DNA from: Candidatus Micrarchaeia archaeon
GTDB taxonomy: Archaea > Micrarchaeota > Micrarchaeia > Anstonellales > J096
Assembly (NCBI GenBank): GCA_041500865.1
Contig: JBGQMY010000004.1
Location: 10,079 to 74,078 of the forward strand
DNA length: 64,000 bases
Direction of reading: 5' to 3'
The notes under the pieces are model-generated. The model had not been told where the DNA came from and searched no databases. It saw only the letters and a program-made list of their open reading frames with translations. The translations under genes and the position numbers were made by a program. Positions 17,500-56,859 of the stretch are shown in pieces. Positions within the stretch are counted from its first letter, which is position 1; each line of letters opens with the position of its first letter.

Positions 17500-17790
17500 T
17501 CACCTCTTCTTCTTGCCTTTCTTCTTCGCTGCCTTTTTCTTTCCCCTCTTTCTCTTCCTCTTGGCGCCTTTCCTGCCGCCCCTGTTCATCTTCGCCTTGT
17601 ACACATATCCGTCGTTCCCGACGTAATACAGATATCCGGCCTGCTTGCTCACCTTGGCGCTGCCCACCTTCTTCTTCCTTCCGCCGGTGTTGTGCTTCAT
17701 GGGTACGGCCCAGACGCATCCGTCGCTTCCTACGAAGTAGAGATATCCCTTTTCCCTACTTATCTTTTCATTTCCTATTTTTTCTGCCAT
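17500..17790 (-). CDS. Small basic protein with duplicated GYLY[FY]VGxDG repeat and Lys/Arg tail
   Basis: 96 aa from MAEK; GGGGTG RBS-like sequence upstream and oligo-T tract downstream. Confidence 0.8.
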   Translation of the reverse strand: MAEKIGNEKISREKGYLYFVGSDGCVWAVPMKHNTGGRKKKVGSAKVSKQAGYLYYVGNDGYVYKAKMNRGGRKGAKRKRKRGKKKAAKKKGKKKR

Positions 17791-17945
17791 TTTGTATACA
17801 CCCCTAATTTTTCTTCTGTTCGCATTTTGCGTTCCCCTCTTTTTAAACTTTGTCCCCGTCAACCCGACAATCCTACGAATACAGTTGTTTTTAGTGTTGG
17901 TAGCTCGTTGTTTTACGTCGGTTTTCGGTTTTTTTAACGTCGATC

Positions 17946-53769: not shown

Positions 53770-54642
53770 ATGCCAAAGCTTATCGACAAGCTAATCTCAA
53801 TAGGGCGGCTTACGAGGTTCGAGCACGGCATAATGCTGTCAATCGCCGTTTTCATCGGGTTCCTGCTAATCGGGGTTTCTGACGTCTCGCTTTCGCTTTT
53901 CCTCAACACCATGCTGGTGCCTTTCCTGATAGAGATGGGCGTGTTCTCCCTAAACGACGTGCTGGACATTGAAACTGACAAAATAAACAACAGGACAGAC
54001 AGGCCCCTGGTCACCGGAAGCATAAGCGAGAAGGAGGCAAAAACCATATCCGGTGCCTGCCTTGTGCTTGGCATACTGGCCTCTTCTTTCATAAACAGCG
54101 AGGCCCTGCTGATAACCACGGTTTTCGCTGCATTCGGCATAATCTACAACTACAAAATGAAGGACATACCGCTGCTGGGCAACATGTTCATTGGCACGAC
54201 GATGGGCATACCGTTCGTGTTCGCAGAGGTCGCATTCAGCGGCGGAATCACGGCAAAGTCGATGTACCTGTTCTGCGTGGCCTTTGTCATAGGGTTCGCC
54301 CGCGAAATAGTGAAAAGCGTGGAGGACTACAAAGGAGACATGGCTGCAAGGGGCTCAAGGACGCTTCCGGTCCTCATCGGCCCGAAAAAGAGCATGATGC
54401 TGGCCGGCCTGATATTCATGCTGTTCGTCCCGATATCCTATTTCTTCCTGATAAGCGTGTTCCAGCAGATAAGGATGATTGCCCTCATACCGCTCACGTT
54501 CGCCTATCTTATAATAGTGTATGCGCTGCTGGAATGCCTTTTCTGCACAGGGGAGTGCAGGAGCGAGGCTGCCACAATAAAGAAGCTCACGCTATTTGCC
54601 ATGGCGATAGGCCTGCTGGCAATGATAATATCATACCTTTGA
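53770..54642 (+). CDS. UbiA-family prenyltransferase (DGGGP synthase-like)
   Basis: NDVLDIETDKIN..RPL, REIVKSVEDYKGD, TLP. Confidence 0.9.
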   Translation: MPKLIDKLISIGRLTRFEHGIMLSIAVFIGFLLIGVSDVSLSLFLNTMLVPFLIEMGVFSLNDVLDIETDKINNRTDRPLVTGSISEKEAKTISGACLVLGILASSFINSEALLITTVFAAFGIIYNYKMKDIPLLGNMFIGTTMGIPFVFAEVAFSGGITAKSMYLFCVAFVIGFAREIVKSVEDYKGDMAARGSRTLPVLIGPKKSMMLAGLIFMLFVPISYFFLISVFQQIRMIALIPLTFAYLIIVYALLECLFCTGECRSEAATIKKLTLFAMAIGLLAMIISYL

Positions 54643-55146
54643 GGCCTGCCCAAAAATCTTTAACATTGCATCGGGCTTCGCCTTTGCCGCGATGCCGTAG
54701 CCCAGGTCAAAAAGCGAAATCGTGAGCAGAGGGCGCCAGTCCCACAGCAACAGCGCTATGAACAGGCTTCCGATTATCATCGCAGGCCTGAATTCCCTTA
54801 TGAAGGGCAGCTCCGTCTCGTCAATGGCCGCGCCTATCGCAAGCACGGCTACCGTGACCGGGCTGAGCACGCTGAAGTCCCTGACAAGGAAAACCGTTAT
54901 GGCCAGCACGGCAACGTAAGCCAGCTGGAGCGAAAGCTTGTCTATCTTTCCCATCAGCGGAAGCGCAATGAGCAGGCTGATTGCAATCTCCGGGGAAACA
55001 GTTATTACTGCGAAAGCGCCGATTGAGATGAAGATGGCGTTGACAATGAAATACGCAATCTCCTTTTTGCTCCTTCCGAGCGCAAAGCCGTCCAGCATCT
55101 TTGACGACAGGCCTGAAAGGAACACCGCAACGAGGGTTGGCACCAT
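54631..55146 (-). CDS. Hypothetical polytopic membrane protein
   Basis: Multiple hydrophobic segments; GKID motif. Confidence 0.65.
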   Translation of the reverse strand: MVPTLVAVFLSGLSSKMLDGFALGRSKKEIAYFIVNAIFISIGAFAVITVSPEIAISLLIALPLMGKIDKLSLQLAYVAVLAITVFLVRDFSVLSPVTVAVLAIGAAIDETELPFIREFRPAMIIGSLFIALLLWDWRPLLTISLFDLGYGIAAKAKPDAMLKIFGQASKV

Positions 55147-55288
55147 GCATTGCGCTTGCGCTGCGGAGTTTTTAACATTATTTGTTTTATTTGTTTTCAA
55201 TGCTAGCTTCCAATGGTAATTATACGCGCGCGTAATGCAAACATTTAAATATAAGGTTCGCATAAAACAAAACCAGAAGTGAATTACG

Positions 55289-55336
55289 ATGGCAGCAAAA
55301 AAGAAGGCCAAGAAAAAAGGCAAAAAGAAGAGATAA
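55289..55336 (+). CDS. Putative 15-aa lysine-rich microprotein MAAKKKAKKKGKKKR
   Basis: TTTAAATA at ~55244, AAGTGA RBS-like sequence, oligo-T tract downstream; shares its last 9 aa with the 17500-17790 protein. Confidence 0.6.
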   Translation: MAAKKKAKKKGKKKR

Positions 55337-55462
55337 ATTCTGAATACAGAATCTTAATTTTATTTTTTTCAATGGAAACGCAGGGGCTCCCCATCTCGCT
55401 TTCCATTCCAATTGTGAAAGGTTTAAATAATTGCGCAGCCAACCTTATTCAGGTGTTTTTGA

Positions 55463-55567
55463 ATGTGTGATGAGAAAGGATGCGTATGCACGTGCGGAAC
55501 AATGAAGAGGAAGGCAAAGAAGCCTGCAAGGAAAAAGGCAGTTAAGAAAGCCAAGAGGAGGAAGTGA
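55463..55567 (+). CDS. Putative 34-aa Cys/Lys-rich microprotein MCDEKGCVCTCGTMKRKAKKPARKKAVKKAKRRK
   Basis: TTTAAATA at ~55422, AGGTG RBS at 55451, extreme K/R/A composition. Confidence 0.65.
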   Translation: MCDEKGCVCTCGTMKRKAKKPARKKAVKKAKRRK

Positions 55568-55599
55568 TTCCTCCAAGCTTATTTTTCGGGGCTGGCTGC

Positions 55600-56859
55600 G
55601 TGCTTCTTGTCAGGGGAGGGACCCTTGTAGACGGATTCAGTGTAATCAAGGCAGACATGCTCATAGAAAACGGGAAAATACGGAAAATCGGGAAGGGCAT
55701 AAAGGAAAAGGCGGAAAGGACAATAGACGCCTCGGGAAAGATAGTCATCCCGGGCCTTGTCAATGCGCACACCCACCTTCCAATGACAATGCTGAGGAAC
55801 TATGCCGAAGGCAAGCCGCTGGAAAGATGGCTTAAGGAAGACGTCTGGCCTGCGGAAGCCAAGATGACGGAAAATGACATGTGCCTGGGCGGATACATGG
55901 GCGTAGCCGAGTGCCTGCTTTCAGGCACGACGTGCGCAGCAGACATGTTTTTCTTCGGCTCGCATGCCGTAGGCGCTGCCGCTGATTCGCTTAACATGAG
56001 GCTCGTGCAGTTCATGGACATCATGGACAGCGGGAAGGAATCCGATTTCGGCAAATGCGGCGCGTTCATATCCAAAGTAAGGAAACACAAGATGTCCAAG
56101 CCGGGCATAGCGTGCCATAGCGTGTCCAGGTGCGGAAAGGAGCTGCTTGTGGAAGGCAAGGGGCTGGCGCGCAAGGAGAACCTTGCATTCCAGATGCACG
56201 TTGCGGAGACGCGCACGGAGCTGTTTGAATGCATAAAGGCGCACGGCAAGAGGCCCGTGGAATATGCGGAGTCATTGGGATTGCTTGACAGGCAGACGCT
56301 GCTGGCCCATGCCTCATGGGTCACAAAAAGGGAAATCGGCATCATCGCAAAGAGCGGGGCCGCGGTTGCGCACTGCCCAATCAGCAACCTCAAGCTTGCG
56401 ACAGGGGGCATAATGCCGCTGGAGCAGTACAGGGAAGCAGGGGCATGCATTGCGCTTGGCACTGACGGCGCGTCAAGCAACAACTCGCTTGACATGATTG
56501 AGACAATGAAGATGGCGGGGCTGCTGCAGAAGCACAGGTATTGGGACGCTGCTGCAGGAAACCCGAAGGACCTCTTAACGTATGCGACCTATGGGGGCGC
56601 CAAGGCGCTTGGCCTGGACGCAGGAAGGATAGCAGAAGGCTGCCTTGCAGACCTTGTCATACTGGACCCGATGGAGAACATGGTGCCGCTTGGGGACGTT
56701 TACACGGCAATAGCCTATTCCTGCTCAAGGAAGAACGTTGAAACGGTGATTGTTGGCGGAAAGGTAAGCGTTGAGAACGGAAAACTGCTTAATTTTGACG
56801 CCAAGACAAGGGAAAGGTTCCTTGAAAGGGCGGATGCCATCAGGTCCGGTTCATCCTAG
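55600..56859 (+). CDS. Amidohydrolase, MTA/SAH (5'-deoxyadenosine) deaminase-like
   Basis: PGLVNAHTH, MHVAET, AH, HCPISNLKL, LGTDG..SNN. Confidence 0.88.
   Translation: MLLVRGGTLVDGFSVIKADMLIENGKIRKIGKGIKEKAERTIDASGKIVIPGLVNAHTHLPMTMLRNYAEGKPLERWLKEDVWPAEAKMTENDMCLGGYMGVAECLLSGTTCAADMFFFGSHAVGAAADSLNMRLVQFMDIMDSGKESDFGKCGAFISKVRKHKMSKPGIACHSVSRCGKELLVEGKGLARKENLAFQMHVAETRTELFECIKAHGKRPVEYAESLGLLDRQTLLAHASWVTKREIGIIAKSGAAVAHCPISNLKLATGGIMPLEQYREAGACIALGTDGASSNNSLDMIETMKMAGLLQKHRYWDAAAGNPKDLLTYATYGGAKALGLDAGRIAEGCLADLVILDPMENMVPLGDVYTAIAYSCSRKNVETVIVGGKVSVENGKLLNFDAKTRERFLERADAIRSGSS

Follow-up and report, generated by a model that had tools for sequence, protein, structure and literature searches.

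Can a stretch of 15 codons, most of them for lysine, be a gene in its own right, and if so, what would its product and that of a similar frame just downstream do for the cell? The question arises from the genome of a Candidatus Micrarchaeia archaeon of the DPANN group (G000; 1.04 Mb, 92% complete), in which two lysine-rich open reading frames, ORF1 and ORF2, lie in tandem between a membrane-protein gene and an amidohydrolase gene. The host is an ultra-small symbiotic archaeon. The region falls within a window of 64,000 nucleotides, the term being used here for the whole stretch of DNA that was analysed, and a preliminary description had proposed that the two frames are unannotated micro-genes, each with its own expression signals, encoding minimal DNA- or RNA-condensing peptides.

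Two short frames and their signals

The features of the region are as follows.

54631..55146, minus strand: divergent membrane-protein gene, no Pfam family; left border of the intergenic region
55244-55251, plus strand: TATA-box-like TTTAAATA of ORF1, 45 nt before the ATG
55278-55282, plus strand: Shine-Dalgarno-like AGTGA of ORF1, 6 nt before the start
55289-55336, plus strand: ORF1, oligolysine gene, 15 codons and TAA
55338..55369, plus strand: terminator-like signal of ORF1, formed by a 5-bp hairpin at 55338-55351 with a T-tract at 55358-55369
55422-55429, plus strand: TATA-box-like TTTAAATA of ORF2, 41 nt before the ATG
55451-55455, plus strand: Shine-Dalgarno-like AGGTG of ORF2, 7 nt before the start
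55463-55567, plus strand: ORF2, 34 codons and TGA; cysteines at residues 2, 7, 9 and 11 precede a tail of Lys, Arg and Ala
55557..55586, plus strand: terminator-like signal of ORF2, a 7-bp hairpin (55557-55574) with the stop codon in its loop, then TTATTTTT (55579-55586)
55600..56859, plus strand: adjoining MtaD-like amidohydrolase gene, outside the module, which probably starts with the GTG at 55600

Both frames lie at the coordinates originally quoted, on the plus strand, and the gap that holds them is a genuine intergenic one. The ATG at 55146 is the start of the membrane-protein gene, and the conserved N-terminus begins there in two relatives as well; a frame that runs antisense across ORF1 is open in G000 and closed in the same-genus genome G001. 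Homologues of the amidohydrolase align from residues 7-13 of its long frame, in line with a GTG start at 55600. The ORF1 peptide consists of 10 Lys, 3 Ala, 1 Gly and 1 Arg, with Met counted among the 15. Among ATG-initiated ORFs of 10-60 aa on both strands of the genome, only 42 reach a Lys+Arg content of 50% or more; ORF1 and ORF2 tie for second among these 42 (0.67), and most of the others are Arg-rich frames within longer ORFs. The label "unannotated" does not wholly hold for ORF2, an identical 34-aa protein being present in a public predicted-protein library.

Each frame has a TATA-like box, a Shine-Dalgarno-like match and a downstream hairpin with a T-tract, as expected of separately signalled genes, and the oligo-T tract reported after the first frame proves to be preceded by a hairpin. 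TTTAAATA itself occurs 73 times in 2.09 Mb. Directly upstream of the ORF1 copy lies a conserved A-rich, BRE-like stretch, and a 21-nt block around that copy is identical in G002, a second genome of the genus, and nearly so in G001; at the ORF2 box, G002 and the metagenome contig L187 share the block TGTGAAAGGTTTAAATAATT unchanged. The ribosome-binding signals are similarly retained, with GGTGAT or GGTGA at the place of the ORF1 site in eight of 11 relatives' loci, and the AGGTG of ORF2 kept in G002, G001 and L187. Within this genome, GGTG falls at -16 to -3 of 85 of 980 long-frame starts versus 132 of 5000 random ATGs. A hairpin, a T-run or both follow the ORF1-type stop in all 11 loci compared, and the stem of the ORF2 hairpin is preserved in G002 with one G-U pair. 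The ORF2 terminator sits just ahead of the amidohydrolase start and is probably leaky. The ORF2 stop and the amidohydrolase start are 32 nt apart in genus g1, to which the host belongs, no TATA-like box is found between 55567 and 55600, and transcription from the ORF2 promoter may run on into the amidohydrolase.

Conservation and coding signature

The pair lies upstream of the amidohydrolase gene in both other genomes of g1 (G001 and G002), and is retained there even though the amidohydrolases are only 63% and 57% identical to that of the host. Two more ORF1/ORF2 pairs are found on the metagenome contigs L187 and L191. ORF1 has orthologues in G001, G002 and L187, and ORF2 has orthologues of 32 aa in G002, 29 aa in G001, 34 aa in L187 and 26 aa in L191. 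The arrangement upstream of an amidohydrolase is absent from 26 loci of other genera, each holding at most 1.5 kb of flank, and when 1.84 billion representative proteins were searched with a profile, only ORF2 itself and its G002 orthologue matched. Judged from five sequences, the ORF2 gene is confined to this genus.

Substitutions are of the coding type. Once the part used as a search pattern is removed, differences among g1 ORF1-type genes fall at codon positions 1, 2 and 3 in the numbers 2, 4 and 14 (pN/pS 0.20), and those of a second genus, g19, in the numbers 7, 5 and 59 (pN/pS 0.06), all pN/pS figures given here being drawn from non-independent pairs of short, low-complexity sequences. 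The corresponding values are 0.11 for the plain, cysteine-free type of genus g23, 0.31 for the cysteine type of g23, and 0.42 for ORF2 in g1, where synonymous sites are saturated and five sequences represent one genus. Synteny in relatives and a bias toward synonymous change had been proposed beforehand as checks, and both came out in favour of genes: the pair is syntenic in the two same-genus genomes and the two contigs, and the ORF1 type has a third-position excess with pN/pS of 0.06-0.20. Where frameshifts in orthologous regions would have spoken for spurious frames, length changes are in frame and the peptides are conserved.

That the frames arose by chance in A/G-rich intergenic DNA is suggested by their shortness and low complexity, but four families of the order have kept the start, the frame, the stop and the signals on either side, indels keep the frame, and pN/pS lies at 0.06-0.20. 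Contradicted as it is by these conservation data, chance origin has next to no probability. A structured RNA was also rejected, as the region has no Rfam match and unremarkable folding energies: at E <= 1 there are no matches in 55100-55700 and the whole window yields a tRNA only, and the fold z-scores are only -1.6 and -0.8. On this comparative evidence, ORF1 is very probably a genuine micro-gene that is independently transcribed and translated, and ORF2 probably is one as well.

A family of oligolysine genes across the order

Genes of the ORF1 type extend well beyond g1, a fact that the preliminary description overlooked, as it did the recurrence in another family of the order of the pairing of a plain with a cysteine-bearing gene. 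A pattern consisting of the C-terminal six residues and the stop, run against 151 genomes of the order with the reversed pattern as control, gave 19 matches versus five for the control, and 11 of the 19 are stand-alone ORFs of at most 22 codons. A sequence-only model, R1, has matches at E <= 0.01 in 77 of the 151 genomes; of the 90 R1 places examined (30 loci and 60 fetched), 28 hold stand-alone micro-ORFs and one further place is uncertain. Counting G138, which was found by the pattern search, the family is verified in 29 of the 151 sampled genomes, spanning nine genera and four families, with one case (G249) outside the order.

Each member has an A/T-rich, TATA-like box some 30-45 nt upstream, most have GGTGA(T) 3-8 nt before the start, and a hairpin and/or T-run lies downstream. 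The peptides are 13-31 residues long, with all length differences in whole codons and one member made of six tandem 5-residue repeats, and are limited to Lys, Ala, Gly, Ser, Val, Thr and Pro; Arg is very rare in them and aromatic residues are lacking. Within g19 the family is verified in nine of 23 genomes, and R1 finds no member in, for example, G031, a 100%-complete genome that shares its genus with nine carriers; this patchy distribution implies that the family is either dispensable or too divergent for R1. A Pfam scan of 88 flanking ORFs at 21 loci revealed no recurrent neighbour gene, and none recurrent that would point to chromatin, translation or metal handling.

This variety of contexts bears on the idea that the frames are cis-regulatory elements, translated or untranslated, that control the downstream amidohydrolase, either as leader peptides responsive to polyamines or lysyl-tRNA or as a small RNA. 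ORF2 adjoins the amidohydrolase in every g1-type locus, its stop 32 nt ahead of the start with no promoter-like box between, and one g23 pair adjoins an Amidohydro_1 gene, but the g23 amidohydrolase is convergent rather than downstream, and ORF1-type genes, with terminators of their own and unrelated contexts in 21 loci, lack the linkage to one gene that marks a leader peptide. Together with an amino-acid conservation and a third-position bias that exceed what a stalling leader needs, and with no Rfam match and no unusual fold, these points leave a regulatory role only a slim chance.

Homology searches

Profile searches place the peptides in no described group. ORF2 and two g23 peptides match no Pfam family at E <= 0.01, including the profiles for histone H1, Hc1, Hc2 and protamine, and NCBIfam gave nothing meaningful for 10 peptides; ORF1 is shorter than the 20-aa minimum of these profile tools. 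Neither ORF2 nor the ORF1-family profile A4 matched any PDB chain at E <= 10, a search in which a short, low-complexity query has little power, and the best ESM Atlas score, 0.83, is below the meaningful level. Our literature search found no paper on such genes in Micrarchaeota or other archaea. A suspected fusion to ribosomal protein uS9 was discarded, since the Lys-rich uS9 N-terminus of G085 is an ordinary extension present across the order in carriers and non-carriers.

The ribosome is nonetheless a place where very small, very basic proteins recur, and the peptides could be lineage-specific ribosomal microproteins that fine-tune decoding or the joining of subunits from within rRNA pockets, the kind of site taken by eL41/eS32, bS22 and bL37. 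Such proteins readily escape notice: according to the accessible text of PMC5876184, the 24-aa bL37 and an eL41-like protein were found only by cryo-EM. Strong promoter-like and Shine-Dalgarno-like signals would suit a ribosomal role, as would the look-alike Lys-rich N-termini of the order's r-proteins uS9, eS1 and eS31. The true eL41/eS32 of the host, however, is a separate 38-aa ORF (G000:C8:37879-37992, minus strand; E 1.9e-7 to archaeal ribosome chains) with equal Arg and Lys and with the Trp and Leu that are conserved in eL41/eS32, traits absent from ORF1, which has 10 Lys to 1 Arg, no Trp or Leu and no bulky side chain. Length variation of 13-31 residues and internal repeats fit a fixed pocket poorly, distribution is patchy even in g19 (nine of 23 genomes verified), the uS9 fusion proved to be an ordinary N-terminal extension, and ORF2 and the family profile have no PDB match at E <= 10, though for so short a query this counts for little. 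We consider a ribosomal location unlikely.

Pairing with a cysteine-bearing paralogue

A tandem pair of a plain gene and one with a Cys/His cluster is present in three of three g1 genomes and six of seven g23 genomes, and in none of 18 loci of other genera. The cluster is N-terminal in g1 and at the opposite, C-terminal end of the peptide in g23, and comprises 2-5 Cys and 0-3 His, making 4-6 ligands in all. ORF2 has C-x-C-x-C and its relatives have CC-x-CC-type clusters; clustered C-x-C or C-C motifs, which may bind metal as in metallothionein-like peptides, are present, and Pfam and NCBIfam give no profile match. The mixing of Cys and His in the g23 cluster is how metal ligands behave, and so lends indirect support to metal binding. 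Within a genus, the cluster has been both gained and lost on one scaffold, which argues against a precise conserved site. Pairs occur only in g1 and g23, both histone-less, a pattern seen in two lineages and noticed post hoc.

Two further readings start from the cysteines. The Cys-type peptide might chiefly handle metal, whether as a metallochaperone, as a mini metallothionein or through an N-terminal site like that of HypB; its Lys tail would then serve only solubility or docking, and the plain peptide would be functionally unrelated. The C-x-C-x-C of ORF2 and the CC-x-CC-type clusters of its relatives, the interchange of Cys and His in g23, and a Cys2 placed, like that of the HypB Ni site, beside the free N-terminal end all agree with this, whereas the HypB spacing C-x-x-C-G-C is absent, no Pfam or NCBIfam metal family is matched, no metal transporter or regulator is a constant neighbour, and the cluster is lost at the same locus in close relatives. 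That the gene recurs in tandem with a plain paralogue, moreover, points to a shared role, and a dedicated metal handler is quite unlikely.

Alternatively, the peptides might sit on the membrane surface, held by a polybasic run that binds the acidic lipids of archaea and by a lipid modification of the terminal Cys cluster. Eukaryotic anchors of the polybasic-plus-prenyl or polybasic-plus-palmitoyl kind supply the analogy, and the Cys cluster does lie at the extreme N-terminus (g1) or C-terminus (g23), adjoining the polybasic run. An isoprenoid enzyme is encoded in three of about 12 distinct contexts (UbiA in g1, squalene/phytoene synthase in G101, polyprenyl synthetase in G044), an observation that is post hoc and small. 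Against lipid anchoring, we know of no protein prenyl- or acyl-transferase in these archaea, His beside Cys in g23 suits metal binding better than lipidation, and cysteine is wholly lacking from the plain type, all of which makes this reading improbable.

Function and genome inventory

What then would the peptides do? The explanation that we favour is that genuine micro-genes encode polycations that act by charge rather than by fold. The ORF1 product would be an oligolysine peptide, free and disordered, that carries a net charge of about +11 and is one member of a Micrarchaeia-wide family of 13-31 residues; the ORF2 product would be a similar polycation with an N-terminal four-cysteine cap. 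As counter-ions or condensers made from a gene, both would attach to polyanions, DNA and/or RNA being the most probable, much as histone H1 tails, protamines or polyamines do. In the partner peptide the Cys (or Cys/His) cluster could bind a metal ion or form disulfides, and by joining several tails would turn the peptide into a multivalent, switchable cross-linker; the recurrent pairing with a Cys/His-capped paralogue suggests just such a simple, switchable cross-linking chemistry. From gene structure, conservation, coding-type substitution and recurrence of the pair, which are matters of observation, we infer translation, target and cysteine chemistry, and we judge this explanation as a whole to be evenly balanced between right and wrong.

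The DNA- or RNA-condensing role first proposed is consistent with the composition of the peptides, limited to Lys, Ala and Gly, with their free variation in length and with the negative search for histones and HU in the host genome. A polycation binds any polyanion, and the sequence data here are equal for DNA, for rRNA or the ribosome, and for acidic lipids or the membrane. The 92%-complete host genome encodes Alba and deoxyhypusine synthase, but searches of it turned up no histone or HU, no spermidine synthase or AdoMet decarboxylase, and neither of the polyphosphate kinases PPK1 and PPK2. With no such kinase found, polyphosphate is an unlikely target. The plain type is likewise no simple histone substitute, as it coexists in g19 with histones, present in 22 of 23 g19 genomes.

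Verified micro-genes occur in none of 26 genomes with a full-length spermidine-synthase match (E < 1e-20) versus 29 of 125 without, an exploratory contrast (naive Fisher p 0.0045) whose threshold was chosen after seeing the data and whose significance is overstated by the test because the genomes are kin. With the curated spermidine-synthase cut-off it shrinks to seven of 29 carriers versus 55 of 122 others. Possible, if doubtful, is the more specific proposal that Micrarchaeia which have lost polyamine synthesis, and some of them histones too, obtain their bulk counter-ion for nucleic acids as a gene-encoded oligolysine of 13-31 residues from a minimal transcription unit. With a paralogue in some lineages whose metal- or redox-sensitive Cys/His knob cross-links the tails, this would amount to a minimal protamine-like compaction system.

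With 13-18 codons, these genes rank among the shortest for which comparative genomics can document conservation and a separate promoter, and standard gene callers are blind to genes of this size. DPANN archaea hold 1-Mb genomes in very small volumes, and many are without polyamine synthesis and histones; peptides of this kind, if they are indeed bulk polycations, would go some way to explaining how nucleic acids are neutralised in such cells.

Comparison with known systems

Haloarchaeal zinc-finger micro-proteins carry two C-P-x-C-G-like pairs, and ORF2 has no CxxC pair of any kind. Another comparison is with the N-terminal CxxCGC site of HypB, where, according to the accessible text of PMC12284835, Ni(II) is bound by the N-terminal amine with Cys2, Cys5 and Cys7. 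ORF2 similarly has a disordered N-terminus in which the cysteine at residue 2 is soon followed by others at short intervals, but its cysteines are at 2, 7, 9 and 11, its orthologues have other spacings, and it carries a polycation tail and no GTPase domain.

The polyamines spermidine and spermine are soluble small molecules whose multiple positive charges neutralise nucleic acids. The proposed peptides resemble them in this but are gene-encoded, bear far more charge per molecule and, unlike spermidine, cannot serve as substrate for the deoxyhypusine synthase present in the genome. The histone H1 C-terminal domain, chlamydial Hc1 and Hc2, and Pseudomonas AlgP are Lys/Ala-rich tails or proteins that condense DNA. 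They share with the micro-gene products a Lys/Ala/Pro/Gly composition, disorder and action by charge on polyanions, but have at least 100 residues, whereas the whole product here is 13-34 residues and ORF2 has no Pfam match. For AlgP (PMC9239181) the target is polyphosphate, an unlikely one here because PPK1 and PPK2 were not found.

In size and basicity, ORF1 and ORF2 are like archaeal and eukaryotic eL41/eS32 and actinobacterial bS22 and bL37, which are tiny (24-38 aa), extremely basic, often unannotated and RNA-binding. ORF1 is nevertheless shorter (15 aa), almost pure Lys without the Arg/Trp/Leu pattern, and has no sequence match to them, a variable length and a patchy distribution.

Protamines are Arg-rich, with Cys cross-links and Zn bridges. 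The peptides predicted here have Lys in place of Arg, belong to an archaeal lineage and have no homology to protamines, but in joining a short polycation to potentially cross-linking cysteines, protamines are the closest analogue of the plain and Cys pair.

Two short genes and their expression signals

Both lysine-rich micro-frames named in the preliminary description are present in the window (G000:C4:10079-74078). As had been claimed, a promoter-like box and a Shine-Dalgarno-like site precede both, and a T-tract follows ORF1. They lie between two longer genes of a DPANN archaeal genome (G000) of 1.04 Mb in 36 contigs, with 52% G+C and 92% completeness:

54631-55146, minus strand: divergent membrane-protein gene, no Pfam family; left neighbour of both micro-ORFs
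55244-55251: promoter-like box TTTAAATA of ORF1
55289-55336: ORF1, the 15-codon oligolysine gene
55422-55429: promoter-like box TTTAAATA of ORF2
55463-55567: ORF2, 34 codons with four Cys near the N-terminus and a Lys-rich tail
right neighbour of both micro-ORFs: Amidohydro_1 (MtaD-like) gene

Shine-Dalgarno-like matches (6 nt for ORF1, 7 nt for ORF2) lie 5' of each ATG. Downstream of ORF1 a 5-bp hairpin precedes the T-tract, which is 12 nt long, and the ORF2 stop falls within the loop of a 7-bp hairpin after which TTATTTTT comes, both arrangements being terminator-like. The Shine-Dalgarno-like and TATA-like signals are meaningful in G000, because 85 of 980 long-frame first starts have GGTG directly 5' vs 132 of 5000 random ATGs, and 211 vs 194 of the same sets have a TATA-like word 20-60 nt 5', the calling of long-frame starts being crude in both counts. 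A scan of the whole genome for ATG-ORFs of 10-60 aa in which Lys and Arg make up at least 50% yielded 42, among which ORF1 and ORF2 tie for second and the remainder are mostly Arg-rich frames nested in longer ORFs; this speaks against chance frames.

Two features of the locus stand apart. A GGGGCTCCCC palindrome at 55383-55392, between the micro-ORFs, is minus-strand terminator-like, and its variant is kept in metagenome contig L187 and same-genus genome G002, not in same-genus genome G001. GTG 55600, just 32 nt past the ORF2 stop, is the probable start of the amidohydrolase gene; this gene has no promoter-like box of its own in the interval 55567-55602, and transcripts begun at the ORF2 promoter may read through into it.

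Conservation and evidence for translation

When the amidohydrolase was used as query against 41 related genomes and the loci were scanned for micro-ORFs, ORF1 and ORF2 were found upstream of the enzyme in both same-genus genomes (amidohydrolase identity to the G000 enzyme 63% in G002, 57% in G001) and at 0 of 26 loci of other genera, where the flank held at most 1.5 kb. The synteny that the preliminary description named as a check holds within genus g1: frames and start codons are intact, and TATA boxes, SD-like sites and T-tracts are likewise preserved. Orthologues of ORF1 are 14-15 codons long; those of ORF2 have 32 (G002) and 29 (G001), each with 4-5 Cys near the N-terminus and then a Lys-rich tail. 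Metagenomes supplied two further pairs, on the G001-like contig L191 and on L187, which is ~94% identical to the window and differs by two changes in ORF1, both synonymous, and by 12 base changes over nine codons in ORF2, five of those codons being synonymous.

Substitutions in the micro-genes concentrate at third codon positions, and the synonymous-change bias named earlier as a check is evident. Differences at positions 1, 2 and 3 number 2, 4 and 14 for the g1 ORF1 type (pN/pS 0.20) and 7, 5 and 59 for that of genus g19 (0.06), the pattern-selected part having been removed from both; pN/pS is 0.11 for plain and 0.31 for Cys-type genes of genus g23, and 0.42, with synonymous sites saturated, for g1 ORF2, all values coming from non-independent pairs of short, low-complexity sequences. 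If purine-richness alone were constrained, A/G changes would be spread evenly over the codon; the periodicity is therefore an argument for translation. At E <= 1 the micro-gene stretch matches no Rfam model, and its folding energies are close to those of shuffled sequences.

An oligolysine family across the order

Across 151 genomes of the order, a degenerate pattern of the last six ORF1 residues plus stop matches 19 times vs five for a reversed control; 11 of the 19 matches are stand-alone ORFs of at most 22 codons, five form the C-terminal tail of a longer protein and three are neither. A covariance model built from sequence only, running from the SD site to the stop, matched 77 of the 151 genomes at E <= 0.01, many weak matches being Lys-rich N-termini of ordinary proteins (uS9, eS1, eS31). 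Inspection of 90 places (30 loci from the model search plus 60 others, a set outside which some 35 of the weakest lie) gave 28 stand-alone micro-ORFs and one uncertain case. G138, which the pattern search had yielded, brings the genomes with a verified member to 29 of 151: three in g1, nine in g19, seven in g23, three each in g15 and g24, and one each in g20, g28, g38 and g42, in four of the 12 taxonomic families sampled, all as a lower bound. A phylum-wide sample added five matches outside the order at E <= 5e-4, one of them a stand-alone 18-codon member (G249).

Met-Ala opens the members' sequences; two to four Lys at a time then alternate with one small residue, and Lys-Lys-Lys-Arg is the usual ending. 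They span 13 to 31 residues; the longest, of 31 codons (genome G052, L175:254-346, minus strand), consists of six tandem 5-residue repeats, a pattern suggestive of lengthening through replication slippage. A TATA-like box and a hairpin and/or T-run accompany every gene, and GGTGA(T) is usually present too. At the g19 loci L054-L059 a terminator hairpin, GGCGGCAGCGCCGCC, lies ~10-60 nt past the micro-gene and is near-identical among several genomes, as is an extra ~25-nt block beyond the T-run; an Rfam search with this hairpin and block matched no family. The metagenome loci L184/L195, L186, L188 and L194 include 10-codon ORFs on unrelated contigs that end in Lys-Gly-Lys-Lys-Lys-Arg and have GGAGG-type ribosome-binding sites 5', and a 17-codon one on an AT-rich contig; oligolysine micro-ORFs may extend well beyond Micrarchaeia.

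Plain and cysteine-bearing genes

The pairing recurs in six of seven g23 genomes (family f9), where two micro-genes lie side by side, both equipped with a promoter-like box and a T-rich terminator of their own. One is plain oligolysine; the other matches it over the N-terminal two-thirds and then closes with 2-5 Cys and 0-3 His in a cluster. In g1, by comparison, the cluster is N-terminal and the gene order reversed. Within g23 the cluster is swapped for extra lysines at the same locus, so the two types are paralogues and the cluster an add-on. No Cys-type gene was found in 18 loci of other genera, nor was one seen elsewhere in G000.

Identity searches and genomic setting

Pfam (ORF2 and two g23 peptides, E <= 0.01) and NCBIfam (10 peptides) gave no meaningful match, PDB sequences none for ORF2 or the ORF1-family profile at E <= 10, and the ESM Atlas only sub-threshold look-alikes; a profile search of 1.84 billion proteins recovered ORF2 itself and its G002 orthologue, nothing else. 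Neither micro-ORF is eL41, which in this genome is a separate 38-aa, TTG-started ORF (G000:C8:37879-37992, minus strand; locus L197:280-393) that matches archaeal eS32/eL41 ribosome chains at E 1.9e-7 and has no Pfam match; ATG-only scans catch just its last 24 codons. An apparent ORF1-uS9 fusion proved to be the ordinary uS9 N-terminal extension, which order-wide (L083-L110) is Lys-rich and 15-60 residues long, and in families f9 and f1 also Ala/Pro/Glu-rich.

In the 92% complete G000, searches found no histone fold (two models), HU, spermidine synthase, AdoMet decarboxylase, PPK1 or PPK2; Alba and deoxyhypusine synthase are present. Histones occur in 50 of 151 genomes and are sharply lineage-bound (f1, 0/18; f6, 40/42; f9, 5/74, with 0/7 in g23; f12, 2/2), so that the plain gene is found both with and without them. 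In an exploratory comparison, a verified micro-gene occurs in 0 of 26 genomes with a full-length spermidine-synthase match (E < 1e-20) vs 29 of 125 others (naive Fisher p 0.0045), the genomes being kin, the threshold chosen post hoc and the contrast weaker under a curated cut-off.

Two other proteins were encountered. A 120-aa protein at 17500-17862 (minus strand), which has no Pfam family, contains two ~35-residue repeats with a hairpin-like Gly-Tyr-Leu-Tyr...Asp-Gly-Tyr-Val motif and a Lys-rich tail with an ORF1-like ending; 83-84-aa versions occur in genomes G009 and G012, and the protein is a candidate for nucleic-acid binding in family f1, which lacks histones. P0004 (G000:C6:14226-14360, minus strand; locus L198:227-361) is a very basic 45-aa ORF with a Lys/Arg/Ala tail, a TATA-like box 5' and no Pfam match.

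Possible function

The safest statement, judged from sequence, is that ORF1 and ORF2 are real genes, predicted to encode free polycationic peptides. Among the family loci the flanking genes differ (UbiA and amidohydrolase, Hjc, Dus, PEP carboxylase, SHMT, NYN/LSM, others) and none recurs tellingly. A ribosomal, a membrane or a leader-peptide role is possible. For the Cys/His cluster, metal handling is a possible role; were the peptides to bind nucleic acid, the cluster would serve as a metal or thiol cross-link. Charge-driven binding to nucleic acid is the most likely role, favoured because there is no fixed partner gene, because peptide length varies freely, and because composition is closer to H1-type tails than to rRNA-pocket proteins; the comparator literature is PMC5876184, PMC12284835 and PMC6136690.
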